A stretch of DNA of 33,604 nt from an uncultured Candidatus Saccharibacteria bacterium. Lineage in GTDB: Bacteria; Patescibacteriota; Minisyncoccia; Phycocordibacterales; UBA9973. Location: positions 1-33,604 of the forward strand of contig CAYIOX010000002.1 in assembly GCA_964365245.1 (NCBI GenBank), written 5' to 3'. Both the position numbers and the translations under genes were made by a program. Shown here piece after piece: positions 8,846 to 30,501 of the stretch; position 1 is the first letter of the stretch, and the number at the start of each line of letters is the position of its first letter. The notes below the pieces were generated by a model. The model was given only the letters and a program-made list of their open reading frames with translations, was not told where the DNA came from and ran no database searches.

Positions 8846-8851
8846 GCTTAT

Positions 8852-8860
8852 AATATAACA
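8852..8860 (-). promoter_or_regulatory. Extended -10 TGtTATATT, 6 nt upstream of the glyA ATG
   Basis: Minus strand reads ...TGTTATATTataagcATG. It lies in the 17-nt gap after the MBL gene stop. Confidence 0.35.
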
Positions 8861-8862
8861 AA

Positions 8863-9732: not shown

Positions 9733-9738
9733 GCTATA

Positions 9739-9747
9739 ATACTAGCA
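9739..9747 (-). promoter_or_regulatory. Extended -10 TGcTAGTAT, 6 nt upstream of the MBL-gene ATG at 9732
   Basis: Minus strand reads ...TGCTAGTATtatagcATG. Confidence 0.35.
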
Positions 9748-9778
9748 TGACCCTTTTATTATAATAATCGGGGTCATG
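9746..9778. promoter_or_regulatory. Inverted repeat CATGACCC-N17-GGGTCATG in the divergent MBL/sod intergenic region (possible operator or hairpin)
   Basis: 8-bp perfect arms at 9746..9753 and 9771..9778. The AT-rich 17-nt spacer contains TATAAT-like hexamers on both strands. Confidence 0.3.
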
Positions 9779-9795
9779 GTGAGTAAACACGAACT

Positions 9796-10419
9796 ATGAA
9801 AAAATTTGAAGAAATAAAATTTAACCTGCCTGCGCAGGCAGGTATCGTCCAATTAAAAGGAATTTCGGCTAAAAATATCGAGGAGCATTTAAAACTCTAC
9901 GCTGGGTATGTAAAGAATGCGAATTTGATTTTAGAAAAAATTCCTGAATATAAGGGCTACGAAAAAGAAGACGCTTTTGCACCCTATGTAGTGAGCGAAA
10001 TTCAGCGTAGATTTAGTTTTGAATTTAATGGAATGCGAAATCATGAATACTATTTCAAATCATTAGAGGGTGGTGCAAAGCCACTGCCGGCTCAATCTCA
10101 ATTAAAATTAGCTATAGAAAAAATGGGAGTGTCTTTTGATGTTTGGTTAAATGGGTTCAAAACCCTCGCAATGACCCGTGGCATCGGCTGGGCAGTGCTT
10201 TATTATGACAAACAGACAGACCAATTGATACAAACATGGGTAGATGAACAACATTTAGGTCAACTAAACGGACTCTCGTGGATTTTAGGTATTGATATGT
10301 GGGAACATGCTTATGTCTATGACTACCCAACTTCAGAAAAGAAAAAATACGTTGAAGCATTTTTTGATAATCTAAATTGGGAGGTAATCGAAAAAAACTT
10401 TAAAAAGGCTCAGCAATAA
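9796..10419 (+). CDS. Fe/Mn-family superoxide dismutase (divergent N-terminal helix)
   Basis: 207 aa. Aligns by eye with FeSOD: IEEH (first His ligand), FNGMRNHEYYF (second His), GIGWAVLYY, DMWEHAYVYDY (Asp and His ligands), NWEVI. The usual HYGKHH reads HLKLY. Confidence 0.85.
   Translation: MKKFEEIKFNLPAQAGIVQLKGISAKNIEEHLKLYAGYVKNANLILEKIPEYKGYEKEDAFAPYVVSEIQRRFSFEFNGMRNHEYYFKSLEGGAKPLPAQSQLKLAIEKMGVSFDVWLNGFKTLAMTRGIGWAVLYYDKQTDQLIQTWVDEQHLGQLNGLSWILGIDMWEHAYVYDYPTSEKKKYVEAFFDNLNWEVIEKNFKKAQQ
9824..9843. repeat. Perfect 20-nt G+C-rich palindrome ACCTGCCTGCGCAGGCAGGT inside sod
   Basis: Self-complementary over all 20 nt. Encodes NLPAQAG in-frame. Shares CCTGCCT/AGGCAGG arms with 11719..11738. 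Confidence 0.85.
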
Positions 10420-11893
10420 ACTGTTTTATACTCCTACCAAAAAGTCTATAGATAAAATAGGCATAGATTAGTATGGTTAAACCTAATGGAAAATTTGGGA
10501 AAGTAAAAGCAGCAAAAGGTAAATTTGAGAAAAAACTGACGACCCAGAGTTCATAATGGAGAAATAAATACGAAATAAATCCGAATGGCACACTAAATCC
10601 ATGCCAAATAAGTCCGACGAAGCCGGTCATAAAACCGAACAACATTGTAAACGGAATAAAAGGAAGAATTAACATATTCGCTGGAAGCGCAACCAAAGAC
10701 AAATTGCCCATTTTGTAAAGAATAAAAGGTAAAACAAAAACATAAGCAGAAAAAGTTACGGACATAATATCTCGTAATTTAAAGAAATCTGGCACCCAAA
10801 GGAAATATTTTTCAACTCTGGGGGCTAAAAAGATAACTGCAATAGTCGCAATAAAAGAAAGCTGAAAAGAAACATCATACACAAGCACAAAGGGATTAAA
10901 TAAAATCATAAACACACCAGCCAAAATCAAAGCTCGCGCCACATCATAATTCCTGCCAGTTGCTCGAGCGATGAGCACGAGCACAGCCATTACCCCAGCT
11001 CTTATAGCCGTAGAACTTCCACCAGTCATTAGTATAAAAAATAAAATAGCCAAAATACCCATTCCAATACCGAGATTTTTTGGCAAAAAAACAAATAATT
11101 TCATTATCCACTCTGCCACTATCGTCACATTATATCCAGACAATGCCACTATATGTATGGTGCCTGTATTCACAAAACTCTCTCGCAAAGACTGATCAAA
11201 AGAAGATTTCTCCCCTAAAATAAGCCCACCCATTAAAAGTGACTCAGGGCTTTGAATTGCAAAATTCATCTTTTCTAAAAATTTTTCTTTTACAAAAAAG
11301 AGTGCACTTTTTAAAAAATTACCGTTACCCCTAGAAACAATTTTAATAGTCGGATAACTCATCACATACAAAATCCCGTCTTTACGTAAATAATTTATAT
11401 AATCAAAATCTTTACCTTGATCTGTGATAAAATTCTCCGGCTTTTCTAATTTACCATAAAAATTCACTTCATCACCATATTTAAAATCATCACCCAAATC
11501 TATTGTCACTAAAATTTTTGTTTTCTCCTTCTCTAGGAAAATTCCTATAGCCAATTTCTGATTATTTTCTCCAATACTTGGTTCATCTACAATTTCTCCA
11601 GAAAAAGAAGCTTTCTGTCCGACTTTTGACTCGAAAACACTCGGCGCCGGCAAATCAACTACAATAAATCTAAAGACACCCAAACAAAAAGCTAAAACAA
11701 AAATAGAAAATAATACCCCCTGCCTACCGGCAGGCAGGCACTTGTTTTTAGAAATTAGAGAGAAAAATAAAAATAAAGAAAAAGAAATTACTCCAAACAA
11801 AATAATTAAATAGAAATTTACAGAAACAAGAGAGCGCAAAAGCACCCCAAAAATAAAACCGAAACAAATTGTATAGAAAATCTTATCTCGCAT
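10400..11893 (-). CDS. comEC: ComEC/Rec2 DNA-uptake channel protein, N-terminal OB/DUF4131-like plus competence (TM) domains only, with no MBL domain
   Basis: 497-aa polytopic ORF with a soluble insert (KASFSGEIVDEPSIGENNQKLAIG...). Competence-domain signatures GTIHIVALSGYNVTIV and MTGGSSTAIRAGVM. Its 3' end overlaps the sod 3' end by 20 nt (convergent). Confidence 0.85.
   Translation of the reverse strand: MRDKIFYTICFGFIFGVLLRSLVSVNFYLIILFGVISFSLFLFFSLISKNKCLPAGRQGVLFSIFVLAFCLGVFRFIVVDLPAPSVFESKVGQKASFSGEIVDEPSIGENNQKLAIGIFLEKEKTKILVTIDLGDDFKYGDEVNFYGKLEKPENFITDQGKDFDYINYLRKDGILYVMSYPTIKIVSRGNGNFLKSALFFVKEKFLEKMNFAIQSPESLLMGGLILGEKSSFDQSLRESFVNTGTIHIVALSGYNVTIVAEWIMKLFVFLPKNLGIGMGILAILFFILMTGGSSTAIRAGVMAVLVLIARATGRNYDVARALILAGVFMILFNPFVLVYDVSFQLSFIATIAVIFLAPRVEKYFLWVPDFFKLRDIMSVTFSAYVFVLPFILYKMGNLSLVALPANMLILPFIPFTMLFGFMTGFVGLIWHGFSVPFGFISYLFLHYELWVVSFFSNLPFAAFTFPNFPLGLTILIYAYFIYRLFGRSIKQFIAEPF
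11719..11738. repeat. Near-perfect 20-nt G+C-rich palindrome CCTGCCTACCGGCAGGCAGG inside comEC
   Basis: One mismatched pair out of ten. Encodes CLPAGRQG in a loop between TM helices, in the same CTG-CCT-GCx (LPA) frame as the sod copy. Confidence 0.8.
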
Positions 11894-14605: not shown

Positions 14606-17500
14606 TTAAATAGCACTCATTCTCACCTTCGTCTTTGGACCTACAATCCCATCGGGAATTAAATCGTTTACAGTTTGGAATAAGATAACTGCAGACTTGG
14701 TCTTTGGGCCAAATTTTCCATCAACGGCTAAATTGAGATTTAATTTAATATTCAAAAATCTCTGAAGATCCACAACTGCCATACCACTAGCTCCATTTCT
14801 GAGAGTGGTGTATGAATTTGAGATATTTGGTATTGCTACTGTTGATGAAATAGCTCCCGGAGGAATCACAACATTGTATTGATTGGCCACTTGTTGCGCT
14901 TGTGTATTATTACCCATGGATAAAAGATTACGAATTCTACTTTGGGCAGTGCTTCCGGAAGAAGGACATCCGTTTGTGGATTTTGTAATAGAAATTAAAC
15001 TTGTTTCTGTTCCGTCTCCATTTCGGTATTTTACGGAATATGTATATTCATTACCACAAGACAATCCAGTATCAGTCCATGAGTTAGTTTGTATCCAACC
15101 GGAATTTGCGCCAGAACGGGAGAAATAATATCCTGATGAGCCACTCGTGTCGTTGGGGAAGCTATCAACAGATAAACTAACGCTGTTTGAGTTTGAGGAA
15201 GCGGAAAAGTTTGTTGGGACATCGGCTAGAGTATATTTACTTCCCAAATCAACTGCAGTATTTGCCAGTGAGTCGCCATTTCTTGATGTAGCTTGAAAAG
15301 TATATTGAGTGTTTTCTGAAAGCGATCCGCTTTGCCATGAGTTAGTTTGCGTCCAGCCCGAATTTGTTGAAGCAGTTGTGTTTGCAAAATATAGACCAGA
15401 AGTGCCAGAAGCAAGATTAGATAATGTTCCTGAAGCGGAAAGAGTAATTGCGTTTATGCCAATGCTATCCCAAGAAGCACCGACTGGCGATTCAATTTTT
15501 GTATAAATGGTTGAAGCAACTGACGAAGACACGCTTTCTCCGAAGCTGTTATATGCTTTTGCATAACGACCCGAATATGCAGTATTAGAAGAAAGTCCTG
15601 TTTCGTCTAAATATGTTAAATTAGTTGTAGCCGAAGATGTAGCTAATGTATTAGTGTTGTCATAAATTCTAAACCCAGTTTCATCACTTGCGTTATCGGT
15701 GAAATTCCAACGGATGGAAGAAACCGATTGAGCTGATGGTGCGCCGATGGTGGGAGCAAAAGGTGCGGGTTGATATTCATACGCCCCCATATCTGGAAGG
15801 CCAGCGATAGGATTCCCTGAAATATCTGAGGTCAAACTAACATCTGTTCCCGCGTTGATTGCTGGGGATGTAGATTGGAGATGAAAATCGGAGGTGGAGA
15901 CGAAGAGCGGATCTGTGGTGATCGATCCTGTGCCGCCTCGATTTGAAGAGTTGTAATAACAATTATTCGAGACTTCAGTCGGTGTCGAATTAGCCACAGA
16001 TGTTGTGACAGTATGAAATATATTGTTTTTAACTATCAAAGTGGGTTCATTTGAAGCAGTAATAGATATTCCCCTTGATATTCCGTAGAATGTATTATTA
16101 TACGCGATAATTGATCCTCCGAATTGAGCATATACCCCATATGTGGATGCGCCACCAGTAAAAGAATTGTAGCGTATTTCTATATCTTGCCCAGTGCTGT
16201 CTGAGATTCCATGAGCATAACCAAAAATAACATTCGCTTGTGCTAATAAAGATGTTGCGGTCGATGAAAGAAGTATAGCTCTATATCTTCCATAGACACT
16301 AGAATTAGTTATTATGGCAGGAGACACCACAGTTATTCCGACACTAAGATCTGCTCCATCTTGTGCCGTATTTGTGAAATTATTGATAGTTTCGGATGTG
16401 GCTGTAAGTGTGCCACCATAACCACTTTTGCAATTAGTTACCACCGCTCCGTTAATAGATATGTTTCCAAAAGCGCCCGTTCCACCTGTGTGTCCATATA
16501 TCCCCGTACATTTTGTTTGGTATTGGCTCATGGAAACTTCTACATCCACCAGCGATACAGATTTCCCGGTTGGAGCTACAGAATATATAACTAACGGAAT
16601 AAATTGATTAGTCCCATAAAATGCTTCGTTAAATATTCCTCCATTTATAGTACATCCTTCTTCTATTAGAATATTATGTTTAGATCCATCATTGGCTTCT
16701 ATGTCGGTAAGAATGCAATCTGCAGCAGCTATCATTGATCCATTGTTGTGATAATTTCTCCTTGTTTCAATATTAGTAATCGTGGATGAAGCGCCAACAG
16801 AAACACCCCAGTCTCTCGCGGAATATTCATATGTTTTGCCGTTGGTGGCGGGATTTGCTGATGCAGTTGCATGAATATACATAGTCGCTGCTCCCGCAGA
16901 TTCAGAACTTGGATAATACGACGATGGTGTCGCATCGACTAAATCAATAGAGGCCACTCTGGTTAGAAGGGTATCGTTTTCCCAAATTCTAACATAACCA
17001 CCGGTTGAGGGTATTGTGATCGCAGTTTGGTATACATTTGTTTTTCCTGCTGTTTTTGACCATGAAGCTCCCAATATTTCGTCTGACGAGTCAATGAGAG
17101 GTTTATTCCCAACACCAAACACTCCAATGTTTATTCCTGTTTCAGTTTTCGTCAACTGCTCTCGCCAAACCTCGCCACGTTTGAACAAAATGTAATCGCC
17201 AGAAGAAAAGGAAAAAGTATTAACTTTAGCAATAGTTTGCCAAGGAGAAGAATCGGAACAGGTTCCGTTTACAGATGTGCCAGTATTAGTATCTAATCCC
17301 CCTGTAGCATCCACACAATACGTCGCCGCATTGGCGACATTTGTGAAAGCTAAAAATCCCACCACAAAAAATAGATAAACAAAAAGATTCCGCAGGATTA
17401 AATAAATATTTTTAGAAAAAGTTTCTACTCTCTTGAATTCTGTCATAATTTTTTTGTTTTTAACTTCCTTTTTTATATACTTAATTATTATATCAAGCAC
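14606..17500 (-). CDS. Secreted right-handed parallel beta-helix protein with FN3-like repeats and a C-terminal peptidoglycan-binding (PG_binding_1-like) domain
   Basis: Signal peptide ...LFFVVGFLAFTNVANA. Beta-helix N-cap (SPWQTIAKVN...GDYILFKRGEVW) and C-cap (DPLFVSTSDFHLQSTSPAINAGTD...PDMGAYEY). FN3 (SSIRWNFTDNASDETGFRIYD). C-terminal GASGMAVVDLQRFL...VDGKFGPKTKSAVILFQ...PDGIVGPKTK. The 17500 start is GTG; ATG 17446 (MTEFKRV...) is an equally plausible start. Confidence 0.8.
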   Translation of the reverse strand: MLDIIIKYIKKEVKNKKIMTEFKRVETFSKNIYLILRNLFVYLFFVVGFLAFTNVANAATYCVDATGGLDTNTGTSVNGTCSDSSPWQTIAKVNTFSFSSGDYILFKRGEVWREQLTKTETGINIGVFGVGNKPLIDSSDEILGASWSKTAGKTNVYQTAITIPSTGGYVRIWENDTLLTRVASIDLVDATPSSYYPSSESAGAATMYIHATASANPATNGKTYEYSARDWGVSVGASSTITNIETRRNYHNNGSMIAAADCILTDIEANDGSKHNILIEEGCTINGGIFNEAFYGTNQFIPLVIYSVAPTGKSVSLVDVEVSMSQYQTKCTGIYGHTGGTGAFGNISINGAVVTNCKSGYGGTLTATSETINNFTNTAQDGADLSVGITVVSPAIITNSSVYGRYRAILLSSTATSLLAQANVIFGYAHGISDSTGQDIEIRYNSFTGGASTYGVYAQFGGSIIAYNNTFYGISRGISITASNEPTLIVKNNIFHTVTTSVANSTPTEVSNNCYYNSSNRGGTGSITTDPLFVSTSDFHLQSTSPAINAGTDVSLTSDISGNPIAGLPDMGAYEYQPAPFAPTIGAPSAQSVSSIRWNFTDNASDETGFRIYDNTNTLATSSATTNLTYLDETGLSSNTAYSGRYAKAYNSFGESVSSSVASTIYTKIESPVGASWDSIGINAITLSASGTLSNLASGTSGLYFANTTASTNSGWTQTNSWQSGSLSENTQYTFQATSRNGDSLANTAVDLGSKYTLADVPTNFSASSNSNSVSLSVDSFPNDTSGSSGYYFSRSGANSGWIQTNSWTDTGLSCGNEYTYSVKYRNGDGTETSLISITKSTNGCPSSGSTAQSRIRNLLSMGNNTQAQQVANQYNVVIPPGAISSTVAIPNISNSYTTLRNGASGMAVVDLQRFLNIKLNLNLAVDGKFGPKTKSAVILFQTVNDLIPDGIVGPKTKVRMSAI
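15010..15415. repeat. Intragenic tandem domain repeat, period 258 nt (86 aa), boundaries approximate
   Basis: CCATGAGTTAGTTTG at 15077 recurs at 15335. Protein copies are ...SGWTQTNSWQSGSLSENTQYTFQATSRNGD and ...SGWIQTNSWTDTGLSCGNEYTYSVKYRNGD. Confidence 0.7.
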
Positions 17501-19339: not shown

Positions 19340-20719
19340 ATGAACTTTCATACTTTTTACGCTTATCAAAAAAAATCAGTTTCGATCTCCCCTCGCGTTC
19401 TTTTATCGACACAAGGCGGATTTACTTTGATTGAAACACTGATCGGTAGCGCCGTTTTTCTGATAGTGGCTTTGTCAGCCTACAGCGCTTTCAATGTATT
19501 GATGGATGTTGCTGTCGCTTCTCGAATCAAAGTGGCGGCTACAGAATTAGCGAATGAAAGGTTTGAAATTATGAGAAATCTGCCTTATGTTGATGTGGGA
19601 ATAGTCGGAGGATTGCCCATCGGCAAAATTATTAGAAACCAAAACATTATCCGCGACGGCTATTCATTTACCGTAGTCACCACAATCAGAAGCGTTGACG
19701 ACACGTTTGATGGAACAATCGGCGGAAGCCCTTCTGACACCTCGCCAGCGGATTATAAATTGGCAGATATGGACATAACATGCTCTAACTGTAAAAATTT
19801 TTCCACTTTGAATTTCACAACCTTGGTGGCGCCACACGCGCTTGAAACCGCCTCGAACAACGGCGCGCTCTATGTGAGAACAATCGATGCCAGCGGTGTT
19901 CCCGTCGCAAACGCGTCAGTGCACATAGTGAACACACAGACAAACCCAGACACCATCATAGATGAAACGACTGACAGCAGTGGATGGATCAAAATAGTGG
20001 ACGCGCCACCTGGCACCGGAGCTTATAACCTCACAGCTACCAAACCTGGCTATTCGCAAGATCAAACATACCCAATAGGTGGTGTGGCGGGACCAAATCC
20101 GATCAAGCCAAACGCAAATGTGGTAACTCAACAAGTAACCCAGTTAAGTTTGGCGATAGACAGATTGAGTTCCTTGGCAATGACAACAGTAGATTCTTCT
20201 TGCGTGGCATTACCCAACATTGGCTTTTCTCTCACGGGAACTAAAACAATCGGTGTCGGCATACTGAAATATCCAACACAAAATTTTACGACAAACTCAG
20301 GCGCCAATTATACGATTCCAAATTTAGAATGGGATACTTATGGAGTTTTGCTCACATCCGCATCTTACGATTTGGCTGGCACCACCTTATTGCCAAGTTT
20401 CGTTGTCAACCCAAATGAAAATAAGACTCTCCAGCTAATAGCCGTCCCTCATGTAAACAGAGCTCTTTTGGTTTCTGTGAAAGATTCTACGAATGCGACA
20501 ATCGATGACGCCACAGTGCGCTTGCAAAGAAGCGGATTTGATCAAACAAAAACAACAAATTCTGGATCATGTTCCAGTCCTGGACAAGTTTTTTGGAACG
20601 GACTTGCAAGTGACACATACACCTTGACTGTTTCAAAAACAGGATACCAAACATACACCAATGGCGCTTTAAACATTTCTGCCGCTTGGCAAAACCAAAC
20701 AATAACCTTAAATCCATAA
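19340..20719 (+). CDS. Giant prepilin-type protein (459 aa) with carboxypeptidase-regulatory-like beta-sandwich domains
   Basis: Class III signal QGG|FTLIETLIGSAVFLIVAL (F+1, E+5). CarboxypepD_reg-like segments ALYVRTIDASGVPVANASVHIVN...GAYNLTATKPGYS and LLVSVKDSTNATIDDATVRL...DTYTLTVSKTGYQ. Confidence 0.8.
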   Translation: MNFHTFYAYQKKSVSISPRVLLSTQGGFTLIETLIGSAVFLIVALSAYSAFNVLMDVAVASRIKVAATELANERFEIMRNLPYVDVGIVGGLPIGKIIRNQNIIRDGYSFTVVTTIRSVDDTFDGTIGGSPSDTSPADYKLADMDITCSNCKNFSTLNFTTLVAPHALETASNNGALYVRTIDASGVPVANASVHIVNTQTNPDTIIDETTDSSGWIKIVDAPPGTGAYNLTATKPGYSQDQTYPIGGVAGPNPIKPNANVVTQQVTQLSLAIDRLSSLAMTTVDSSCVALPNIGFSLTGTKTIGVGILKYPTQNFTTNSGANYTIPNLEWDTYGVLLTSASYDLAGTTLLPSFVVNPNENKTLQLIAVPHVNRALLVSVKDSTNATIDDATVRLQRSGFDQTKTTNSGSCSSPGQVFWNGLASDTYTLTVSKTGYQTYTNGALNISAAWQNQTITLNP

Positions 20720-20720
20720 A

Positions 20721-21329
20721 ATGCGAAATAATTATAAAAACAAAAAAAATGGACTTACTTTGGTTGAAACTCTTTTTGTGGTTGCTATTTTTACGCTTAT
20801 CATGGGAGTGCTTACATTATTTTCCAAAAATATCTGGACCTATAATTCTTTTATAAACACAGAACTAGAAGCTGTCGACACAGGAAGAATGGCACTAAAA
20901 ACAATGACCGCAGAGATTCGCACCGCTTCGTCTGGCAATAATGGATCCTATGCCATCAATCTGGCGAGCGCCACAAGCTTCACTTTTTATTCAGACATAT
21001 ATGATGATGGATTAAAAGAAAAAGTGAGATATTTTTTAAATGGAACAAATCTGCAAAAAGGAGTAATAATACCGACTGGTAGCCCCCTTGGTTATACCGG
21101 AAGCGAAATTGTAACCACTATTGTTTCCAATGTTACAAATGCTTCTATTTTTAGTTATTACGACAGAAATTACGATGGCGCCACAGTGGCCCTCTCTTCT
21201 CCCATCGATGTGTCAGCTGTGAGATTGGTAAAAATAACCGTCACAATTGATAAAAATCAAAATACACCACCTGCGCCAGTAACAGTATCCACGCAAGTTT
21301 CAATAAGAAACATAAAAGATAATCTATGA
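20721..21329 (+). CDS. Prepilin-type N-terminal cleavage/methylation domain protein (pilin/pseudopilin)
   Basis: KKNG|LTLVETLFVVAIFTLIMGV (E+5). 202 aa. ATGA overlap with the next gene. Confidence 0.8.
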   Translation: MRNNYKNKKNGLTLVETLFVVAIFTLIMGVLTLFSKNIWTYNSFINTELEAVDTGRMALKTMTAEIRTASSGNNGSYAINLASATSFTFYSDIYDDGLKEKVRYFLNGTNLQKGVIIPTGSPLGYTGSEIVTTIVSNVTNASIFSYYDRNYDGATVALSSPIDVSAVRLVKITVTIDKNQNTPPAPVTVSTQVSIRNIKDNL

Positions 21330-22798
21330 TTAAGAAGAAAAAAATAATTAAAAAAAGAGGCATGATTATATTGCAAACAATAGTCTTTGCCGCCGTTTCA
21401 ATAATAATCATCAGCGCGCTTGCCAGTTTGACCGCCACATCTTTGAACGCAAGCAGAGCAACCTACAATCGCGAACAGGCATTTCAATCTGCCGAAGCGG
21501 GAATAGATTATTATCGATGGCATCTAGCTCACGTTTCCAACGATTATCAAGATGGCACAGGCGGACCTGGTCCATATGTCCACTCTTTAAAAAACAAAAA
21601 CGATAGCGTGATTGGACAATTTTCTCTCACGATTACCCCTCCATCACCGGGCTCCACTTTGGTTAAAATAAAATCAGTCGGAACTTCCAACCTTGATCCT
21701 TCATTCACAAGAAAAATAATAACCCAAGTTGCTAAACCTTCCATCGCAGAACACGCTTTCGCTGGAAATAATGCGATGCGTTTCGGTCAAGGGACGGAAA
21801 TTTTCGGAAGCATCCACTCAAATGGAGGAATACGTTTTGATGGAGTAGCGCATAATACAGTTACCAGTTCCGCCACCACTTATGATGACGCAGATCATTC
21901 AGGAAATAATGAAATTGGCGTTCATACACATGTGAACGCGCCACCCGGAAGCGGAATCAATTCAACCTTTAGATCAGCTGAATCGAACCCAAGTTCAATA
22001 CCCGTAAGACCAGATGTTTTCGAAGCTGGACGCAAAATAAGCCAACCAACAATCGATTTTTCGGGTTTTACCTCGGACATAGCAGACCTGAAATTATCCG
22101 CGCAAACGAACGGATTTTATCGAGATGGGGCCGGAAGCGGTTTTGTCGGCTATCACATTGTTTTAAAAACAAATGACACTTTTGACTTGTATAAAATAAA
22201 TTCGTGGGCAAGCTTGGGCAACTGTAATGACTCAGATTCTGAAAGCTCTAGCTGGAGCATCAGCGCCCAAACAATCCAGGGTAATTACGCGCTCCCGTCA
22301 AATGGAATAATTTTTATTCAAGACCATCTTGTGATTGACGGACAAGTAGATAGCGCGCGAATCACTATTGCCGCCGCCCTTTTACCAGAACCATCAGACA
22401 CAAGTCAATACAAAAACATATTCATAAACAATGATTTGTCTTATACCAACTACGATGGGACGGATTCCATCGGTCTCGTGGCGCAAGGCGGAGTAATGGT
22501 GGGTATGATTAGTGAAGACAACCTTAAAATAGATGGGGCCTTAATGGCGCAACATAATAAAGTGGGAAGATTTTATTATATGGGAAACAGTAGTTGCGTT
22601 TATAAAAATCGTTCGGTAATTTCACTCTATGGCATGATCGCTTCTTACGCTAGATACGGATTTGCTTATACAGATGGCACGGGCTACACAATCAGAAATA
22701 TAAACTATGACGCAAACTTACTTTACGCTCCGCCTCCAGAGTTTCCTTTAACTTCAGACCAATACCAAATACTCTCTTGGCAAGAAGTGAAAAATTAA
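21326..22798 (+). CDS. Large minor-pilin-like protein lacking Glu5 (PilX/GspK-like role inferred)
   Basis: KKRG|MIILQTIVFAAVSIIIISALA with Q at +5. 490 aa. Last gene of the pilin operon. Confidence 0.6.
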   Translation: MIKKKKIIKKRGMIILQTIVFAAVSIIIISALASLTATSLNASRATYNREQAFQSAEAGIDYYRWHLAHVSNDYQDGTGGPGPYVHSLKNKNDSVIGQFSLTITPPSPGSTLVKIKSVGTSNLDPSFTRKIITQVAKPSIAEHAFAGNNAMRFGQGTEIFGSIHSNGGIRFDGVAHNTVTSSATTYDDADHSGNNEIGVHTHVNAPPGSGINSTFRSAESNPSSIPVRPDVFEAGRKISQPTIDFSGFTSDIADLKLSAQTNGFYRDGAGSGFVGYHIVLKTNDTFDLYKINSWASLGNCNDSDSESSSWSISAQTIQGNYALPSNGIIFIQDHLVIDGQVDSARITIAAALLPEPSDTSQYKNIFINNDLSYTNYDGTDSIGLVAQGGVMVGMISEDNLKIDGALMAQHNKVGRFYYMGNSSCVYKNRSVISLYGMIASYARYGFAYTDGTGYTIRNINYDANLLYAPPPEFPLTSDQYQILSWQEVKN

Positions 22799-23986: not shown

Positions 23987-25204
23987 TTATTTTATACTGC
24001 CCAAAATTGAGTAAAGCGGAGAGATCATGGAAATAGCAAAAAATCCAACCCCCGCGCCAATGACGACCATCAACAATGGTTCAATGATAGTGGAAAGATT
24101 TTTAGTTTTGTTCTCAATCTCTCCTTCGTAAAACAAAGCGACTTCCAGCAACATATCCGACAACTTGCCGGTTTCTTCTCCGACTTGGATCATCTCTGAC
24201 ATCATCACGGGGTAAAGTTTACTATTGGCTTCAAAAACTGAAGAAAAGGAAGCCCCTTTTTCCACAGCAGTCTTGACCTCGTCTAAAACTTTTTGGTAGT
24301 AAACATTCTGCACCACATCTCCAGTGATTTCTACCGCGCGAGTTATGGAAACTCCAGCCAAAAGAAGCGAGGACATGGTGCGAGCGGTGCGAGCGGTGCT
24401 CAATTCTTTCGCCAAATTTCCAACAACTGGAATTCGCAAAACGATATAATCGATGTATTTAGTCATAAATTTAGCGCGAAAAAATGAGAACAGGCCAAAG
24501 GCGATAACGATTATAATCACAAAAGTCAATATCAAGTTATTAGAAAAGAAGTTGCCAAAAAAAATGAGAACACGAGTGGACGTCGGTAGAACAACGCCAA
24601 GCTCTTTGAAAGTGCTGGCAAGCGTCGGCACAACAAAAGCAAACATCAAAACACCAATGACAACCATGGCGGATAAAATGACTCCCGGGTAAATAAGCGC
24701 TCCTTTTATTTTTTTGGTCAAATTGTGCGATTTCTCCAAATTAATCCCGATATCGACAAGAGCGTTCGCCAAATTTCCCGCCTCTTCCCCAGCGCGCGTC
24801 ATTGACACAAAAAGTTTTGAAAAAACGTCAGGAGATTTGGCGAGCCCGGAAGAAAATGTCTCGCCAGAATTTATATCTCCGGAAAGAGAAGTCAAAACGT
24901 TGCTCAGTTTGACATTTTTTGTTTGTTTTTTTAAAACAGACAGCGCTCTATAGAGCGAAAGTCCCGCTTTTATCATTCCACTTAGATTTTTGGTCAAAAT
25001 AATTTGTTCACTGACGCTAACTTTTGAAAAAATACCGCTGAATGACGACACCTTGTCCATAAAATTATCGCTTTTCTCTTTGATCAATAGTGGTGTGTCT
25101 CCGCGACTCCGCAGTTCGCGAGCGAGCGCCAGACGATCAGTGGCATACAAAATGCCTTCCATAATTTCACCATCTTTTGATTTTGCCTTGTATGAAAAAA
25201 GCAT
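23987..25204 (-). CDS. pilC: Type IV pilus/T2SS platform protein (GspF/PilC family)
   Basis: 405 aa, two T2SS-F repeats, three TM segments. A perfect TTGACA (25232..25237, minus strand) lies in the 34-nt gap after pilB. Confidence 0.93.
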   Translation of the reverse strand: MLFSYKAKSKDGEIMEGILYATDRLALARELRSRGDTPLLIKEKSDNFMDKVSSFSGIFSKVSVSEQIILTKNLSGMIKAGLSLYRALSVLKKQTKNVKLSNVLTSLSGDINSGETFSSGLAKSPDVFSKLFVSMTRAGEEAGNLANALVDIGINLEKSHNLTKKIKGALIYPGVILSAMVVIGVLMFAFVVPTLASTFKELGVVLPTSTRVLIFFGNFFSNNLILTFVIIIVIAFGLFSFFRAKFMTKYIDYIVLRIPVVGNLAKELSTARTARTMSSLLLAGVSITRAVEITGDVVQNVYYQKVLDEVKTAVEKGASFSSVFEANSKLYPVMMSEMIQVGEETGKLSDMLLEVALFYEGEIENKTKNLSTIIEPLLMVVIGAGVGFFAISMISPLYSILGSIK

Positions 25205-25238: not shown

Positions 25239-27017
25239 CTATTCTGAAACGACACGGAATACTTCTTCTAGGGTGGTAACGCCTAAAACCGCTTGATACA
25301 CTCCGTCTTCCAACATGGTCATCATGCCTTCTTTTTTCGCTTCTATTTCTATATCGTCCTGAGATTTTCCGGCAATAATCATTTCCTTGATGGCGGGCGT
25401 TACTTTTAGCACTTCGTGCATACCCATACGATTGGAATAACCGTCCTCAAATTCACTGCTCTTGACCGCTTTGTAAAAAGGAATTTTATCCCAAGTGTCT
25501 TTTGGACCCACAATGTTCTCAGTTTTCAAAAAACCCAACACTCTGTCCAAATCGACAACCTTAGCTAAATTTTTTATTTCCGCAGGCGATAAAAAATATT
25601 TTTCCTTGTTTGGAGTAAGTCTGCGCACCAGTCTTTGCGCGATAATAGTCTTGACTGTAGCTGTTATCAAAAATGGTTCAACGCCCATATCTATCAATCT
25701 GGGTATCGCGCCAGAAGCGCTATTGGTGTGAATAGTAGATAGAACCAAATGACCAGTGAGAGAAGCATTGATCGCCAATCCCGCAGTCTCGCCATCACGA
25801 ATCTCTCCCACCATCACTATATCTGGATCTTGACGCAAGAGGGAACGAAGTCCGTTGGCAAAAGACAAACCTATTTCCGGTTTTACTTGTGTTTGATTGA
25901 CTCTCGGCATTTGATACTCGATAGGATCTTCCACAGTGGAAATATTTACCTCGGGCTTGTTTAAGATATCAAGCATTGTGTATAGGGTGGTGGTTTTTCC
26001 CGAACCAGTAGGTCCAGTGGCCAGTACCATTCCCGTTTTTTGCGAAAGAGACGCATGTATTCGCTCTAATCCTTCCCCATGAAAACCAAGCGTCTCCAAA
26101 GAAAATCCATGCGTATTTTCTTTTAAAATTCTCATCACAGTCTTCTCTCCAAAAAAAGTCGGCAAGGTGGAAACACGAAAAGAAATTTTTTCTCCATCTT
26201 GTTCTTTTTTAAATCTACCGTCTTGAGGCAATCTTTTTTCATCCAGCTTTAAATTGGAAAGCACCTTAATGCGCGCGGTGATCCCCGCGCCGGCAGTCTT
26301 GTCCAAGACCATAGCGTCATGCAATATGCCATCTATTCTGTAACGCACCGTAAGCTCGCGTTCTCCTGGTTCAATATGAATATCGGACGCATTTTGCAAA
26401 ATCGCGTGAAAAATCAGAGAATCAACAATTTTCACAACCGGCAAATCTTCGGCTAGATCTTTTAATTCTGTTTCGGACTTTTCATTTAATTGTTCTTCGC
26501 CTTCCTTTTCCTTGTTTTTTTCGTCTGCGGAAATTTCAAGCTCTTTGGATTCTTTTTGGATAATATTTTGAAATTCAGCCTTCAAACTTTTCCTATATTG
26601 GACGAGCACAGACTTGATCGAAGCCGTATCAGTCAATCGAGGTAAAATTTTAAGTCCAGAACGCTTCTTGATAAAATCAATCACCGGCAAATCATCGACG
26701 TCGAGCATGGCCACTTCCAAACCATGTTCGCTTTTAGTGTAAGCGACGATGTTGTCGTTGCGCGCAATCGGCTCAGGAATCAGAGAAAGCACGGAGAAAT
26801 CTATCTTCCTGTCGATCAAGCTGACAAACGGTATTCCGAGCACATACGCCTCCGTCCGTTTCAAGTCGGTCTCAGATATTTTCCCTTCGGAAAGCAAAAT
26901 GTTCCCGATTTTTTGTTTTTTATTTTCGGATATCTTTAACGCAGATTCAAAATCTTTCTTGGAAACAATCCCCAACTCTAAAAGAAACTTTTTAAACTGC
27001 TCTTCGTCTATTTGCAT
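25239..27017 (-). CDS. pilB: Type IV pilus assembly ATPase (GspE/PilB family) with an N-terminal T2SSE_N/MshEN-like domain
   Basis: Walker A GPTGSGKTTT, Walker B DPDIVMVGEIRD, His box LVLSTIHTN. There is no Cys anywhere in the protein, so the usual tetracysteine motif is absent. Confidence 0.95.
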   Translation of the reverse strand: MQIDEEQFKKFLLELGIVSKKDFESALKISENKKQKIGNILLSEGKISETDLKRTEAYVLGIPFVSLIDRKIDFSVLSLIPEPIARNDNIVAYTKSEHGLEVAMLDVDDLPVIDFIKKRSGLKILPRLTDTASIKSVLVQYRKSLKAEFQNIIQKESKELEISADEKNKEKEGEEQLNEKSETELKDLAEDLPVVKIVDSLIFHAILQNASDIHIEPGERELTVRYRIDGILHDAMVLDKTAGAGITARIKVLSNLKLDEKRLPQDGRFKKEQDGEKISFRVSTLPTFFGEKTVMRILKENTHGFSLETLGFHGEGLERIHASLSQKTGMVLATGPTGSGKTTTLYTMLDILNKPEVNISTVEDPIEYQMPRVNQTQVKPEIGLSFANGLRSLLRQDPDIVMVGEIRDGETAGLAINASLTGHLVLSTIHTNSASGAIPRLIDMGVEPFLITATVKTIIAQRLVRRLTPNKEKYFLSPAEIKNLAKVVDLDRVLGFLKTENIVGPKDTWDKIPFYKAVKSSEFEDGYSNRMGMHEVLKVTPAIKEMIIAGKSQDDIEIEAKKEGMMTMLEDGVYQAVLGVTTLEEVFRVVSE

Positions 27018-27023
27018 CTTAAC

Positions 27024-27029
27024 ATTATA
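27024..27029 (-). promoter_or_regulatory. -10 hexamer TATAAT, 6 nt upstream of the pilB ATG at 27017
   Basis: Minus strand reads ...aaggTATAATgttaagATG. Confidence 0.45.
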
Positions 27030-27174
27030 CCTTACAGTTAATTTTTTTAAAAATCTTTGTGGTGTGGACAGAAAGGCAAATATGGTATATGCTTCTGCTT
27101 GATAAAAGTTCCAAACTGTGGTCTAGCTAGTCTGGGCCACAAAACAATAACGTCCTTTGAAAGCTGAAAACATT

Positions 27175-27987
27175 ATGAAGAAAACGCAGATGCTCTTGAT
27201 AAGTCTCGTCCTGGTATTGTGCCAGGCTCGAGCAGAAATAACCGCAACCTCGTTCATGACGCTCGCCCCGAACCTCAGCATGTCTCCCGACGCGGGAGCT
27301 TTCTTTAACAACTTACTCATGGCAATCCAGACCGGCGCTTCGCAAGCGGGGGTTCCTGGAACGCCGTCAGAGGTCTCATTTTTACAAGGCCCAGAGGCTT
27401 CCATTAGTCTCGACAGAATGATATCCACGGACTATCATTCATGGGGACCAGAAGTGAATCCCCCGGCGCCTTACAGCTCTCAATATGGGGGTTCGCTACT
27501 CCTCGGAGTATGCATTGATGGCAATGGGGAAAGATTTTTACCCCAAAGCATCAGACTGACCCAAGTCTCGACAGACCCTTACGACCTGTTCTCCTACACC
27601 GTGACAGGAACTATCTCGTATTGGAGTACATATGTTCGAGGAATGACGTATGACATCAAGAATGGAACGGAAAACTGGCTAACAAGTGGCTCAGTAACTG
27701 AAGTTCCTAAAGCTATGATACTCTACGCCATATCGGTAGTTCCAGGAGAGACAACCGGAACTCCGGAACAAATCCAAAATCGGACATTGTCTGATTGGGA
27801 ACAAGGGTTTTACATCACACCGGAATGGAAAGTGGGAGGCACCACCGAGAGCGGAAATCCGTTTCAAATAATTCTGCCGGCGGACAACATTCAGATCGTC
27901 CCCGAGCCCTCAATCATCACTCTGTTCCTAGCGGGACTGGGCATCATCGTCTTCGTAAAATTCGCGAGACGAAACGAGTCAGGATAA
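27175..27987 (+). CDS. Secreted protein with a C-terminal PEP-CTERM sorting signal, on a G+C-rich single-gene island
   Basis: Signal peptide MKKTQMLLISLVLVLCQARA|E. C-terminus IVPEPSIITLFLAGLGIIVFVKFARRNESG (PEP motif, TM helix, basic cluster). ATG 27175 is preferred over the ORF-track TTG at 27157. Codon usage (ctc, gcg, ccg, gac) is unlike the neighbours. Confidence 0.8.
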   Translation: MKKTQMLLISLVLVLCQARAEITATSFMTLAPNLSMSPDAGAFFNNLLMAIQTGASQAGVPGTPSEVSFLQGPEASISLDRMISTDYHSWGPEVNPPAPYSSQYGGSLLLGVCIDGNGERFLPQSIRLTQVSTDPYDLFSYTVTGTISYWSTYVRGMTYDIKNGTENWLTSGSVTEVPKAMILYAISVVPGETTGTPEQIQNRTLSDWEQGFYITPEWKVGGTTESGNPFQIILPADNIQIVPEPSIITLFLAGLGIIVFVKFARRNESG

Positions 27988-28016
27988 CAAATCCAACTTT
28001 CAACATCTTCAAAAGA

Positions 28017-28047
28017 GCCGGACATAGCAACTCCGGCCTTTTTTTAT
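28017..28047 (+). terminator. Rho-independent terminator after the PEP-CTERM gene
   Basis: GCCGGA-catagcaac-TCCGGC followed by cTTTTTTTaTTTTT. Confidence 0.7.
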
Positions 28048-28068
28048 TTTTAATTTTCTAAAATTATT

Positions 28069-29433
28069 TTAGTCTTCTATAAATCCCGGTCCTTTCTGTT
28101 CTGAGCACGTTTTATCATCATCAGTCTCTACATCAGGATTAGAGCCAAGACAAGTCCATGTAACTCTAGAAGGTAAGTTTCGGTGATCTGCGCTTCCATT
28201 TAAAGATTGACAATTATAGTGAGTTGGTGCACAAATCCCAATACCAACACCACCAGAATAAGCATAAGTAAACGTAACAGTTTTCTTGGGATTAGTGGAA
28301 CTCAGTGTAACCGAATATTGACTTATATTGCCATTGATAGTATTACATGGTGTTGTGCCACCAGTATTACAGATTTTTAATTTGGTAATAGTATAACCAG
28401 AATCGGACAGAGTAGGATCAACTTTAACTTCATAAGTGCCAAAATCTTTAGGATATGTTCCTCCAGTTTCGCAAGAACCTGCCGTTCCCACAACATTTCC
28501 ACCTATATAACAAGATCCAGAAGGAAGCGAACCCACACTACCCATCTCTCTTACTATAGTGATAGAAGAAGCGCTATTTCCTGGTGGAGTGACACATGTA
28601 GACCAATCACTGTTGCCATTTGCGCAAATATGAGAGCATCCATCGTTATTGTCTGGACCGTTTAGACCATATTGAGGAAGACTATAATTTGTATCATTAA
28701 CTATCCTGCAACCCCACTTAGGAGCAGTGCAAGTGGCAACCGTTGCGCCCGATCCGCAAGACCAATTCCATGCTTGAGATCCGATAGTCGTTGTATCTGG
28801 TAGAGCAGAAAAAGTGCCTTGCGCGCAGGCAGATGTTCCAATTGGTTCTATTTGTTGTGGAGTAGAGCCACTGCCAGGACCGCAAGAAGCAGATGTGGAT
28901 CCAATAATAATGCCACTGAAATCAACCGAACCAACCACATCGGAACCCCATGCATATCCTGTTAAGTTTGTGCCTGACTGTGTCACTCCATAATTATTAC
29001 CCGCAAGAGAAATCCAGCCATCCCAGCCACCCAGTTCTGAATTTGATTTCAAAGCCCCAGAACAATTAGATTGAAAAACGGAACAAGCCCTAACCCAACC
29101 GACGAGAGAGTTTCCAGACATTCTAGCATCTGTTCCAGTAGTGCCACCTCCACTTGGCCAACCGGAAAGTCCTCCGAATTGTATCCAGCCAATATTTGAG
29201 GACCAAGCGTAACCAGGACGAGAACATAAATCATCGCCACAAAATCTTCCGCCAGGAGTTTTATGAACACCATAATTAACTGCCGAATGGTCATTTGTGG
29301 AATTAAAACTAATCCAGCCGATATTGGAAGATAAAGCCCAACCAGACATATTGTGTTCAGTTCCGGCAAAAGCCACAAAAGGCGACAAGAAGAAAACAAA
29401 CGCAAAGACAATTTTTAAAAAATAAATCTTCAT
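28069..29433 (-). CDS. Secreted Cys-rich protein with N-terminal Trp-rich repeats; uncharacterised family
   Basis: Signal peptide MKIYFLKIVFAFVFFLSPFVAFA|G (start at ATG 29433). Five repeats of the type GWALSSNIGWISF / GYAWSSNIGWIQF / GWDGWISLAG / GYAWGSDVVGSVDF. About 20 Cys, and the motif WxWxCxGS occurs twice (AWNWSCGSG, VTWTCLGSN). Confidence 0.8.
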   Translation of the reverse strand: MKIYFLKIVFAFVFFLSPFVAFAGTEHNMSGWALSSNIGWISFNSTNDHSAVNYGVHKTPGGRFCGDDLCSRPGYAWSSNIGWIQFGGLSGWPSGGGTTGTDARMSGNSLVGWVRACSVFQSNCSGALKSNSELGGWDGWISLAGNNYGVTQSGTNLTGYAWGSDVVGSVDFSGIIIGSTSASCGPGSGSTPQQIEPIGTSACAQGTFSALPDTTTIGSQAWNWSCGSGATVATCTAPKWGCRIVNDTNYSLPQYGLNGPDNNDGCSHICANGNSDWSTCVTPPGNSASSITIVREMGSVGSLPSGSCYIGGNVVGTAGSCETGGTYPKDFGTYEVKVDPTLSDSGYTITKLKICNTGGTTPCNTINGNISQYSVTLSSTNPKKTVTFTYAYSGGVGIGICAPTHYNCQSLNGSADHRNLPSRVTWTCLGSNPDVETDDDKTCSEQKGPGFIED

Positions 29434-29450
29434 AATTTTAATTATGATCT

Positions 29451-29957
29451 CTAGGGATTGCAACAATATATAGCGCCCACATCAGCATCACTGCTACCAG
29501 CGTCCATTCGACTTATTTTTAATCCCGCCACATATTTACCTGATGGACACATAACAGTCTCGCCAGCGGTTTCAAATGTTCCAACAGAAGCAGTCCATTC
29601 ACAACTATTTTGTGTCAACGTAGTGCTTCCTCCTCCACTCACCGTCCCCCACTTTACCTTTCCATTGTTCAAATCAGAAGAATCAGCCATCAGAACTTGA
29701 CCTGCGGTTGGCGGTATTAAACCACTTGGAATAAATTTTAAATCTCCAACTATGCCAAGCCCTCCCACAGTCAAAGGACCTCCCTTTGTTTGGGGTAAAC
29801 TACCCACATTTATAGGAGCATCACAACCAGGCTGGCCAGAGGGACAATTGGGCGGACTATCGAGTGGAGCAGTGAAAGCTGACACATATCCCGCCCCCAC
29901 AACAACAATCAAACCCAACGTTATTATCTTTATATTTTGTATTATTTTTGTTTTCAT
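29451..29957 (-). CDS. Small secreted Cys-containing protein; uncharacterised
   Basis: Signal peptide ...VVVGAGYVSA|FTAPLDSPPNCPSGQPGCDAPINVGSLPQTKGGPLTVGG. Six Cys, ending IYCCNP. Only 8 nt downstream of the preceding ORF. Confidence 0.7.
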   Translation of the reverse strand: MKTKIIQNIKIITLGLIVVVGAGYVSAFTAPLDSPPNCPSGQPGCDAPINVGSLPQTKGGPLTVGGLGIVGDLKFIPSGLIPPTAGQVLMADSSDLNNGKVKWGTVSGGGSTTLTQNSCEWTASVGTFETAGETVMCPSGKYVAGLKISRMDAGSSDADVGAIYCCNP

Positions 29958-29965
29958 ATTTTTAA

Positions 29966-30178
29966 TTATTTTTTATTTAATGATTTCGACATGGCGTCTA
30001 ATTTTGATCTAAATTGAGGTGTTTGTTCCTGAACAGTGAGACTTTGAGACATTTCAGTTAGTTTTTGCGCGGGGTTGGGGGGAGATGGAGACTTCGGTTG
30101 AAAAGAATAATAAAAAATAAGCACTCCTAAAATAAGGACAACGAAAACAATCAACGCGACTTTTATATTTTTATTCAT
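29966..30178 (-). CDS. Small single-pass membrane protein (70 aa), first gene of the secreted-protein operon
   Basis: TM helix VALIVFVVLILGVLIFYY followed by a Pro/Ser/Gln-rich tail. Support is position and hydrophobicity only. Confidence 0.45.
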   Translation of the reverse strand: MNKNIKVALIVFVVLILGVLIFYYSFQPKSPSPPNPAQKLTEMSQSLTVQEQTPQFRSKLDAMSKSLNKK

Positions 30179-30324
30179 ATTAGACTAGGTTAAGTATAAA
30201 ACAAAAAGAGTTGCAAAAGTAATAGAGAGTGTGGATAACTAATTTTGTCAAAAATAACATAAGTTTTCTCGCATTCAAATAGTTTGCATTAAAATAAAAC
30301 TTATGATATTCTCACAGAGTAAGA

Positions 30325-30353
30325 GTCCTGTCGCAACAGGGCTTTATTTTTTT
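30325..30353 (+). terminator. Orphan Rho-independent terminator (no upstream plus-strand gene)
   Basis: GTCCTGT-cgca-ACAGGGC (7 bp including one G-U) followed by TTTATTTTTTT. Confidence 0.6.
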
Positions 30354-30387
30354 AGAAAAATAACGAACGAGGTGAGTATATTTTTCT

Positions 30388-30464
30388 TATCCCGTTAGAG
30401 AACGCCCTCCCGCAAAGCGAGAGTGGCTTCGGTCACCTTGGGGCGACCTTTCTCTAACGGGATA
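30388..30464 (+). promoter_or_regulatory. 77-nt highly structured element in the nusA leader (candidate attenuator or ncRNA)
   Basis: 15-bp perfect outer stem (30388..30402 with 30450..30464). Inner stem CGCCCT/GGGGCG. Two internal hairpins, one being tggC-UUCG-Gtca (the classic cUUCGg tetraloop). Followed by cggATTTTTAT. Confidence 0.45.
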
Positions 30465-30501
30465 CGGATTTTTATAGTCATTACATTCCTTAAAAATCAC
30501 T

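Follow-up and report, generated by a model that had tools for sequence, protein, structure and literature searches.

A PEP-CTERM Protein Gene of Foreign Composition beside pilB in Candidatus Nomurabacteria, Probably Acquired Horizontally Long Ago

Results

A PEP-CTERM Protein Is Encoded beside the Type IV Pilus Genes

The 33.6-kb stretch of DNA analysed here (contig CAYIOX010000002.1, positions 1 to 33,604, which as a whole is called the window) carries between pilB and the gene of a secreted 465-aa protein its only gene for a PEP-CTERM protein, with a coding sequence (CDS) at 27175-27987 on the + strand. This gene is compositionally foreign, and it is probable that it goes back to an old and single horizontal acquisition of a PEP-CTERM cassette, the product of which would be a Sec-exported surface protein anchored by its C-terminal helix. 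Sequence comparison assigns the window to Candidatus Nomurabacteria (Patescibacteria, within the candidate phyla radiation, CPR) from Hainich groundwater. Its PilB is 64-89% identical to the PilB of 80 loci titled Nomurabacteria, Paceibacterota or Patescibacteria (species-representative genomes, with about 20 kb sampled per genome), the best match being a Hainich H43 bin, and the exact PEP-CTERM protein is present in Hainich H43 0.1-µm assemblies. Nomurabacteria are CPR bacteria of very small size, which are believed to have no outer membrane. PEP-CTERM proteins are a known kind of protein, and what is unexpected in this case is the CPR host and the long retention of the gene in it.

The open reading frame (ORF) is intact and encodes 270 residues, in which hydropathy analysis detected two hydrophobic segments only, at residues 4-20 and 245-265. 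The first corresponds to a predicted signal peptide, MKKTQMLLISLVLVLCQARA followed by E (residues 1-20; 27175-27234, + strand), which starts with MKKTQ, continues with the hydrophobic run and shows an AxA motif, with cleavage predicted after ARA. This call by hydropathy and inspection agrees with the signal peptide that a preliminary description of the window had placed at the N-terminus, and AlphaFold2 models a helix at residues 2-14. The mature domain (residues 21-240; 27235-27894, + strand) was modelled by AlphaFold2 on the family alignment as a beta-sandwich with two helices, to which a C-terminal helix is added (predicted local distance difference test, pLDDT, 87; predicted template modelling score, pTM, 0.79). 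Ser, Thr and Asn together make up 25% of the protein.

The PEP-CTERM tail occupies residues 241-270 (27895-27984, + strand) and is built by VPEPS (residues 242-246, with the PEP motif at 27901-27909), then IITLFLAGLGIIVFV, then KFARRNESG and the stop codon, in such a way that the motif is followed by the hydrophobic helix of residues 245-265 (247-268 in the AlphaFold2 model) and by the basic cluster KFARR. The three parts of the sorting signal proposed in the preliminary description are therefore present, and when the C-terminus was scored with the hidden Markov models (HMMs) for this signal both thresholds were passed, in each case by a small margin: 22.1 bits against a gathering value of 20.7 for PF07589 of Pfam, and 17.6 bits against a cut-off of 16 for TIGR02595. 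These scores, and the homology that links the entire protein with a family of PEP-CTERM proteins, indicate that the gene encodes a genuine PEP-CTERM protein.

The Mature Domain Belongs to a Family from G+C-Rich Bacteria

An exhaustive HMMER search with residues 22-240 retrieved 99 proteins at E<=1e-3 (7 of them at E<=1e-10), so that the mature domain is not the orphan that one option of the preliminary description had envisaged. The matches cover most of the domain, and the relatives are nearly all 250-300 aa long with the same architecture; at least 62 of the 99 have a PEP tail at the C-terminus, and several others carry variants of the VPLP/VPAP type. The family is rich in Gly, Ala, Arg and Pro, its consensus reads ...SxAPNxxGSPS...NAxxAL...VTxFxSWxGxAxP...GNRxxFG..., and P64, W90 and G105 are invariant in 75 sequences. 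The members that were examined are stand-alone genes in ordinary bacterial contexts, including a 2.9-Mb contig with 62% G+C, a 308-kb contig with 65.5% G+C and a gene with a Wzy_C neighbour, while P0004 is a giant adhesin with one copy of the domain. On sequence grounds, we regard the mature domain as a member of an uncurated family of PEP-CTERM proteins of about 270 aa from ordinary G+C-rich bacteria.

No Pfam or NCBIfam model covers this domain. Word-index protein searches, whether run with one sequence or with a two-sequence profile, matched only the gene itself and P0003, described below, and protein scans of genome, metagenome and viral contigs added no further relatives and one more assembly of the same locus. 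A tblastn search of phage records gave no match to the protein, and no phage or viral relative was detected. P0002, which scored best after the gene itself, was discarded as a repetitive eukaryotic FERM protein.

The Gene Differs in Composition from the Rest of the Window

The G+C content of the PEP-CTERM gene is 49.9%, against 39.2% for the window, and its G+C at third codon positions (GC3) is 0.539, against 0.20-0.44 in the other 22 ORFs. At gene-size resolution the window peaks in G+C at this gene (z = 2.9; value reached by 0.15% of the segments of that size). The difference is much sharper in synonymous codon choice conditioned on amino-acid content, with z = -8.6 for this gene and values from -3.1 to +3.5 for all other ORFs. 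The shift goes toward CTC/CTG, ATC, TTC, GAC and CCG, and the resulting preferences are intermediate between those of the resident pool and those of family members from G+C-rich genomes (GC3 0.65-0.75). The foreign character that had been read from hand-counted blocks is thus borne out by the G+C and codon-usage profiles, whereas the tetranucleotide signature, also put forward as a check, is only mildly unusual (z = 2.1, rank four). The hand counts themselves were exact: 65.0% G+C at 27241-27300, 41.7% at 27601-27660 and 31.7% at 26101-26160, in pilB. On the other hand, G+C-rich shadow ORFs were said to appear only at this gene, but shadow ORFs were found in number opposite other genes. Dual coding of the PEP-CTERM gene was considered and rejected, as the extents of the antisense ORFs differ between the window and its closest relative.

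A Second Copy of the Cassette Supports an Old and Single Origin

That closest relative, P0003, is a protein of 271 aa, 37% identical to the window protein, encoded on the contig L083, which comes from an unrelated NCBI assembly. The PilB of L083 is about 86-89% identical to that of the window, and both loci share the gene order pilB (- strand), PEP-CTERM gene (+ strand) and p465-like gene (- strand). In a neighbour-joining tree of the family (Kimura distances capped at p = 0.93; the most distant pairs raised a numerical warning), the window and L083 proteins were sisters in 195 out of 200 bootstraps. This pairing speaks for a single acquisition with subsequent descent, or for the spread of the whole cassette among Nomurabacteria, and does not fit captures from two different donors.

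Synonymous sites between the two loci are saturated, with a proportion of differences (pS) of 0.71 in pilB and 0.76 in the PEP-CTERM gene, which supports that the acquisition is old. Non-synonymous divergence (dN) is 0.61 in the PEP-CTERM gene and 0.08 in pilB, in such a way that the PEP-CTERM protein has changed at about seven times the rate of PilB. Identical runs of at least four residues between both proteins are QYGGS, GNPF and PEPSI only, and P64, W90 and G105 are kept in both Nomurabacteria copies. The intact ORFs of 270 and 271 aa, the family-invariant residues and the identical runs argue for a maintained function, with some constraint on the PEP motif itself. PEPSI is identical between proteins that are otherwise 37% identical, and the L083 tail scores under the thresholds of both PF07589 and TIGR02595.

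The L083 orthologue is also compositionally deviant, with a GC3 of 0.51 against 0.25-0.39 in the neighbouring genes, and the codon preferences of both copies have moved in the same direction (CTC/CTG, ATC, TTC, TAC, GAC, CCG).

L083 contains as well a complete diversity-generating retroelement between pilC and pilB (374-2627 of that contig), with a reverse transcriptase gene at 374-1390 (RVT_1, 93.6 bits), a template repeat at 1833-1957 and a variable repeat at 2333-2457. The variable repeat is the 3' part of a G+C-rich ORF of 109 aa (2298-2627), and all mismatches between repeats fall at template adenines. A link of this element with the PEP-CTERM gene was rejected: the window lacks a reverse transcriptase, and the variable repeat of L083 is part of another, small ORF.

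The Gene Is Absent from the Same Site in Related Genomes

The 80 related loci encode no relative of the PEP-CTERM protein, and no PEP-CTERM tail was found among their 6565 ORF tails, the L083 orthologue aside. In the closest species representative, L003 (PilB 89% identical), the site is empty: a p465-like gene (9001-9939) abuts pilB (10001), and the 61-bp spacer between them is unrelated to the PEP-CTERM cassette and has no PEP gene. As a horizontally acquired islet, the gene therefore combines atypical composition with presence and absence at a conserved site; signatures of mobility are lacking, as neither a mobility gene in its neighbourhood nor convincing direct or inverted repeats at its flanks were found.

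The site lies in a larger spacer which is itself variable, since nusA stands directly beside pilB in several relatives: in L007, L017, L025, L051, L065 and L080 the two are transcribed divergently with about 110-180 bp between them. The window has 3.5 kb at this place (27018-30501), occupied by three genes, namely the PEP-CTERM gene, p465 and p168. The same spacer of L003 holds a different G+C-rich gene (7626-8876), with a GC3 of 0.54 against 0.33-0.41 in its neighbours, which encodes a 416-aa secreted protein ending in ...FFRLAK and without Pfam match. These observations suggest that the nusA-pilB spacer repeatedly takes up foreign surface-protein genes.

Independent Assemblies Bridge Both Junctions

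An assembly or binning chimera, in which a fragment of a G+C-rich bacterium had been joined to a Nomurabacteria contig, was among the options of the preliminary description, and the G+C content does step up over a single gene, which speaks for it. Both junctions, however, are bridged at 99.8-100% identity in three other assemblies (ENA ERZ1292626, ENA ERZ1292632 and Logan ERR3858118): L001 spans 26064-28537 with 5 mismatches to the window, all in the flanks, L002 spans 26985-28466 and is identical to it, and L086 spans 26863-28778 with 4 mismatches. The supporting small contigs are of low coverage (cov 3), a point in favour of the chimera; against it, the three assemblies differ from the window by few single-nucleotide changes, located in the flanks, the unrelated assembly of L083 shows the same gene order, and the G+C content of the gene (50%) is intermediate and not that of a donor (59-61%). 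With three assemblies across both junctions and the cassette of L083, a chimera is ruled out for practical purposes.

The Cassette Carries Its Own Expression Signals

A consensus scan located a promoter-like site, TGGACA-17-TATGCT, at 27065-27093 (+ strand), overlapping TGGTATAT, upstream of the PEP-CTERM gene. When the 64-nt stretch that contains it was aligned between the window and L083, the score beat all 500 shuffles (z = 5.4), despite the saturation of synonymous sites. Downstream of the CDS, an intrinsic terminator was found at 28011-28050 (+ strand), with a hairpin at 28011-28042 formed by the stem AAGAGCCGGA/UCCGGCCUU and followed by a T-run (-13 kcal/mol, z = -4.3), so that the claim of an own terminator for this gene was correct. 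L083 has a terminator at the equivalent place, in which the stem shows a compensatory change from GCCGGA/TCCGGC to GTCGGA/TCCGAC.

Folding of 27095-27174 predicted a further hairpin, UGUGGUCUAG...CUGGGCCACA, at 27117-27141 (+ strand), within the predicted 5' untranslated region (5' UTR). It may have a role in stabilisation or regulation of the mRNA, a function put forward with caution because its z-score in the window is weak (-1.4). A G+C-rich hairpin of different sequence occupies the same relative position in the 5' UTR of L083 (about 4975-5005). A search with Rfam gave no match over the window, hence no riboswitch or known RNA in this 5' UTR.

For pilB, a consensus match to a promoter, TTTAAA-16-TATAAT, was found at 27024-27051 (- strand), with a -10 element that ends 6 nt before the ATG, a leaderless geometry. 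Extended -10-like elements (TGnTAnnnT, or TATAAT at pilB) lie 6-7 nt before the ATG at the starts 8845, 9732, 12435, 19302 and 27017, all on the - strand, and Shine-Dalgarno-like motifs were detected in almost none of the 23 ORFs of the window. This arrangement suggests that the genes at the head of operons are transcribed without a leader. TGnTAnnnT-N6/7-ATG had been described as the resident start geometry, but it is present at only 4 of the 23 ORF starts, to which TATAAT-N6-ATG at pilB can be added, and its absence from the PEP-CTERM gene is consequently not diagnostic.

Neighbouring Genes

The resident left flank, pilB (25239-27017, - strand), is divergent from the PEP-CTERM gene and encodes the T2SSE/PilB ATPase (Pfam T2SSE, 398.6 bits). 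It belongs to a type IV pilus set that also includes pseudopilins (19340-22798) and PilC (23987-25204). The resident right flank, p465 (28069-29466, - strand), is convergent with the PEP-CTERM gene, encodes the secreted 465-aa protein and has homologues upstream of pilB in L003, L036, L013 and others. Members of the p465 family are 25-59% identical among relatives, show motifs such as GWAWSSNIGWISF and Cys-rich C-terminal segments, and have no Pfam match; from its sequence, p465 looks like a fast-evolving, lineage-specific surface protein.

Every ORF of the window was assigned or inspected. ArgRS, dUTPase, Tmk, SDR, SHMT, a metallo-beta-lactamase fold protein (8863-9732), SOD, ComEC (10400-11893), RNase H, RecJ, a giant peptidoglycan-binding protein, HIT, PGK, TIM, the pseudopilins, PilC, PilB and NusA were assigned, and at the right end a membrane pyrophosphatase ORF extends past the border of the window. 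A DNA-uptake route through ComEC and type IV pili has been proposed for Patescibacteria (PMC12455944). Two very large products are probable surface proteins: the giant peptidoglycan-binding protein, which has 964 aa (14606-17500, - strand) and a C-terminal peptidoglycan-binding domain (PG_binding_1), and that of an ORF of more than 1320 aa (1 to about 3970, - strand) with an N-terminal membrane segment, which runs off the left end. Among all these ORFs of the 33.6-kb window no exosortase, exopolysaccharide (EPS) or outer-membrane gene was found, as the preliminary description had stated.

Discussion

Taken together, the data are best explained by an old horizontal acquisition, which we consider probable. 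A cassette made of a single gene with its own promoter, 5' UTR, CDS and terminator would have been acquired by an ancestor of at least two Nomurabacteria species, presumably in this direction and from a conventional G+C-rich bacterium of the exosortase type, and would have been inserted in the variable nusA-pilB spacer, precisely between the p465 gene and pilB. The product would be exported by Sec and its signal peptide cleaved, so as to display outside the cell a beta-sandwich of roughly 220 residues. The PEP-CTERM helix would then hold the protein in the cytoplasmic membrane with the basic cluster in the cytoplasm (type I topology), with the tail acting as a plain and uncleaved anchor. By analogy with other PEP-CTERM proteins, the function is probably adhesive or matrix-binding.

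Several points weigh against this explanation. Both orthologues retain a GC3 of 0.51-0.54 despite saturated synonymous sites, which exceeds what simple amelioration predicts; incomplete amelioration, a later lateral spread of the cassette or codon selection could each contribute. The gene is present in two genomes only, so that the timing and direction of gain or loss stand on thin sampling, and PilB is 89% identical in each comparison of the window, L083 and L003, so that these values give no branching order. The insertion is accompanied by no transposase, target-site duplication or terminal repeat, with short repeats at chance level only at its borders. The surface function of the protein is a predicted one, and the modelled fold has no informative structural match: searches of PDB and BFVD with Foldseek and a profile search of PDB sequences gave nothing informative for the mature domain, with a best TM-score of 0.26. 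The lack of exosortase, EPS and outer-membrane genes in the window belongs here too, as does the perfect conservation of PEPSI between orthologues of 37% identity, which hints at recognition by an enzyme and speaks against a plain anchor.

A recent, strain-specific acquisition of an orphan sorting-signal protein, the first of the options in the preliminary description, could account for the alien codon usage, for the absence of the gene from the 80 species representatives and for word-index searches that matched the gene itself only. It is nevertheless highly improbable, because L083 holds an orthologous cassette at the same site, with homologous promoter and terminator, so that the cassette is common to a second species. 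The copies, at 37% protein identity and with saturated synonymous divergence, pair with each other in the family tree, 99 relatives of the domain show that it is no orphan, and a PilB identity of 86-89% excludes that L083 is a mis-assembly or a contamination from the same population. If the gene were instead native, its C-ending codons could stem from translational selection in a very highly expressed gene: NNC is the preferred form of two-fold codons in both orthologues (TTC, TAC, AAC, GAC, with ATC likewise), and the bias persists despite saturated synonymous divergence. To this we give very little credence, since the bias extends to CTC/CTG, CCG, ACG and TCG, with GGT depleted, and so resembles the usage of high-G+C genomes and not typical translational selection; moreover, all other relatives are in conventional G+C-rich bacteria, with the Nomurabacteria pair nested among them as a single sister pair, and the gene is absent from 80 related genomes. 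A decaying relic without function would fit the fast non-synonymous divergence (dN 0.61), the L083 tail under the HMM thresholds and a gene lost from, or never present in, most relatives. However, both reading frames have stayed intact through saturated divergence and differ by one residue in length (270 and 271 aa), they retain the family-invariant P64, W90 and G105, promoter and terminator are conserved and the AlphaFold2 model is confident, which makes decay very unlikely.

A more serious competitor is an ordinary PEP-CTERM/exosortase system, in which an exosortase-family enzyme encoded elsewhere in the genome would cut off the tail at the PEP motif and hand the protein on to an acceptor at the surface. 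The cells of haloarchaea have only one membrane, and as archaeosortase A is active in them, an outer membrane is not required by this enzyme superfamily. Archaeosortase A is homologous to exosortases and acts on haloarchaeal substrates (PMC7157517 and a preprint by Haft). This system is also favoured by a tail that passes curated thresholds, by the strict conservation of PEPSI between orthologues otherwise 37% identical, and by the literature, in which PEP-CTERM strictly co-occurs with exosortase in the same genome (PMC1569441; bioRxiv 10.1101/2023.06.07.544157); with none in the window, this rule is either broken here or the enzyme is elsewhere in the genome. On the other side, the 33.6-kb window has no exosortase and one visible PEP-CTERM protein, against a reported median of eight per genome (PMC1569441), and the 6565 ORF tails of the 80 related loci yielded no PEP-CTERM tail. 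Published descriptions of PEP-CTERM are confined to bacteria that have an outer membrane (PMC1569441; bioRxiv 10.1101/2023.06.07.544157), the literature searched gave no link of PEP-CTERM or exosortase with CPR bacteria, Patescibacteria or Parcubacteria, and the L083 tail falls under both HMM thresholds. We therefore see an ordinary exosortase system as possible but rather unlikely, and an anchor without cleavage as the most likely role of the tail, because no exosortase is in the window, PEP-CTERM is known only with an outer membrane and an exosortase, and no CPR link was found in the literature. A bolder version, which we judge doubtful, is that some Nomurabacteria run a working PEP-CTERM sorting through an unrecognised exosortase/archaeosortase-like enzyme, and in this way present on their surface a protein taken over from diderm bacteria, which may be their hosts. 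If this were true, the epibiont could bind the exopolysaccharide matrix of its host, and the conservation of PEPSI and the long retention of the cassette would reflect enzyme recognition beyond membrane anchoring.

Whichever role the tail has, a PEP-CTERM protein kept for long in a CPR lineage would mean either an exosortase-type route that has passed unnoticed or a sorting signal re-used as membrane anchor without its enzyme. The locus also offers a concrete path for the diversification of CPR surfaces, with a nusA-pilB spacer that would take up genes for foreign secreted proteins. Its practical value is modest, as it provides one candidate for the biology of host attachment in an uncultured group.

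Compared with known systems, the protein resembles the PEP-CTERM proteins sorted by the exosortases XrtA/XrtB, such as the floc-forming PepA of Zoogloea resiniphila (PMC1569441; bioRxiv 10.1101/2023.06.07.544157), with which it shares a signal peptide, an uncurated mature domain, a Ser+Thr+Asn content of 25%, a tripartite tail at the extreme C-terminus and a family that is mostly PEP-tailed. It differs from them in its CPR host, in being a single copy, in the lack of an exosortase or EPS locus in view and in its position beside type IV pilus genes. The PGF-CTERM substrates of archaeosortase A in haloarchaea (PMC7157517) also have a tripartite C-terminal signal and a processing enzyme homologous to exosortases, but the motif is PGF and not PEP, they belong to another domain of life, and no archaeosortase-like gene was seen in the window. 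The LPXTG/sortase proteins of monoderm bacteria have a similar plan of signal peptide, surface domain and C-terminal motif with helix and basic tail, whereas here a PEP motif abuts the helix, LPXTG is absent and the sorting enzymes are unrelated. Finally, as a foreign gene in a streamlined CPR genome with ComEC and type IV pili, this one is like the transferred genes and islands of groundwater Patescibacteria (PMC12455944); in that survey most transfers were between Patescibacteria, while this gene, which codes for a sorting-signal protein, has its relatives in conventional G+C-rich bacteria.

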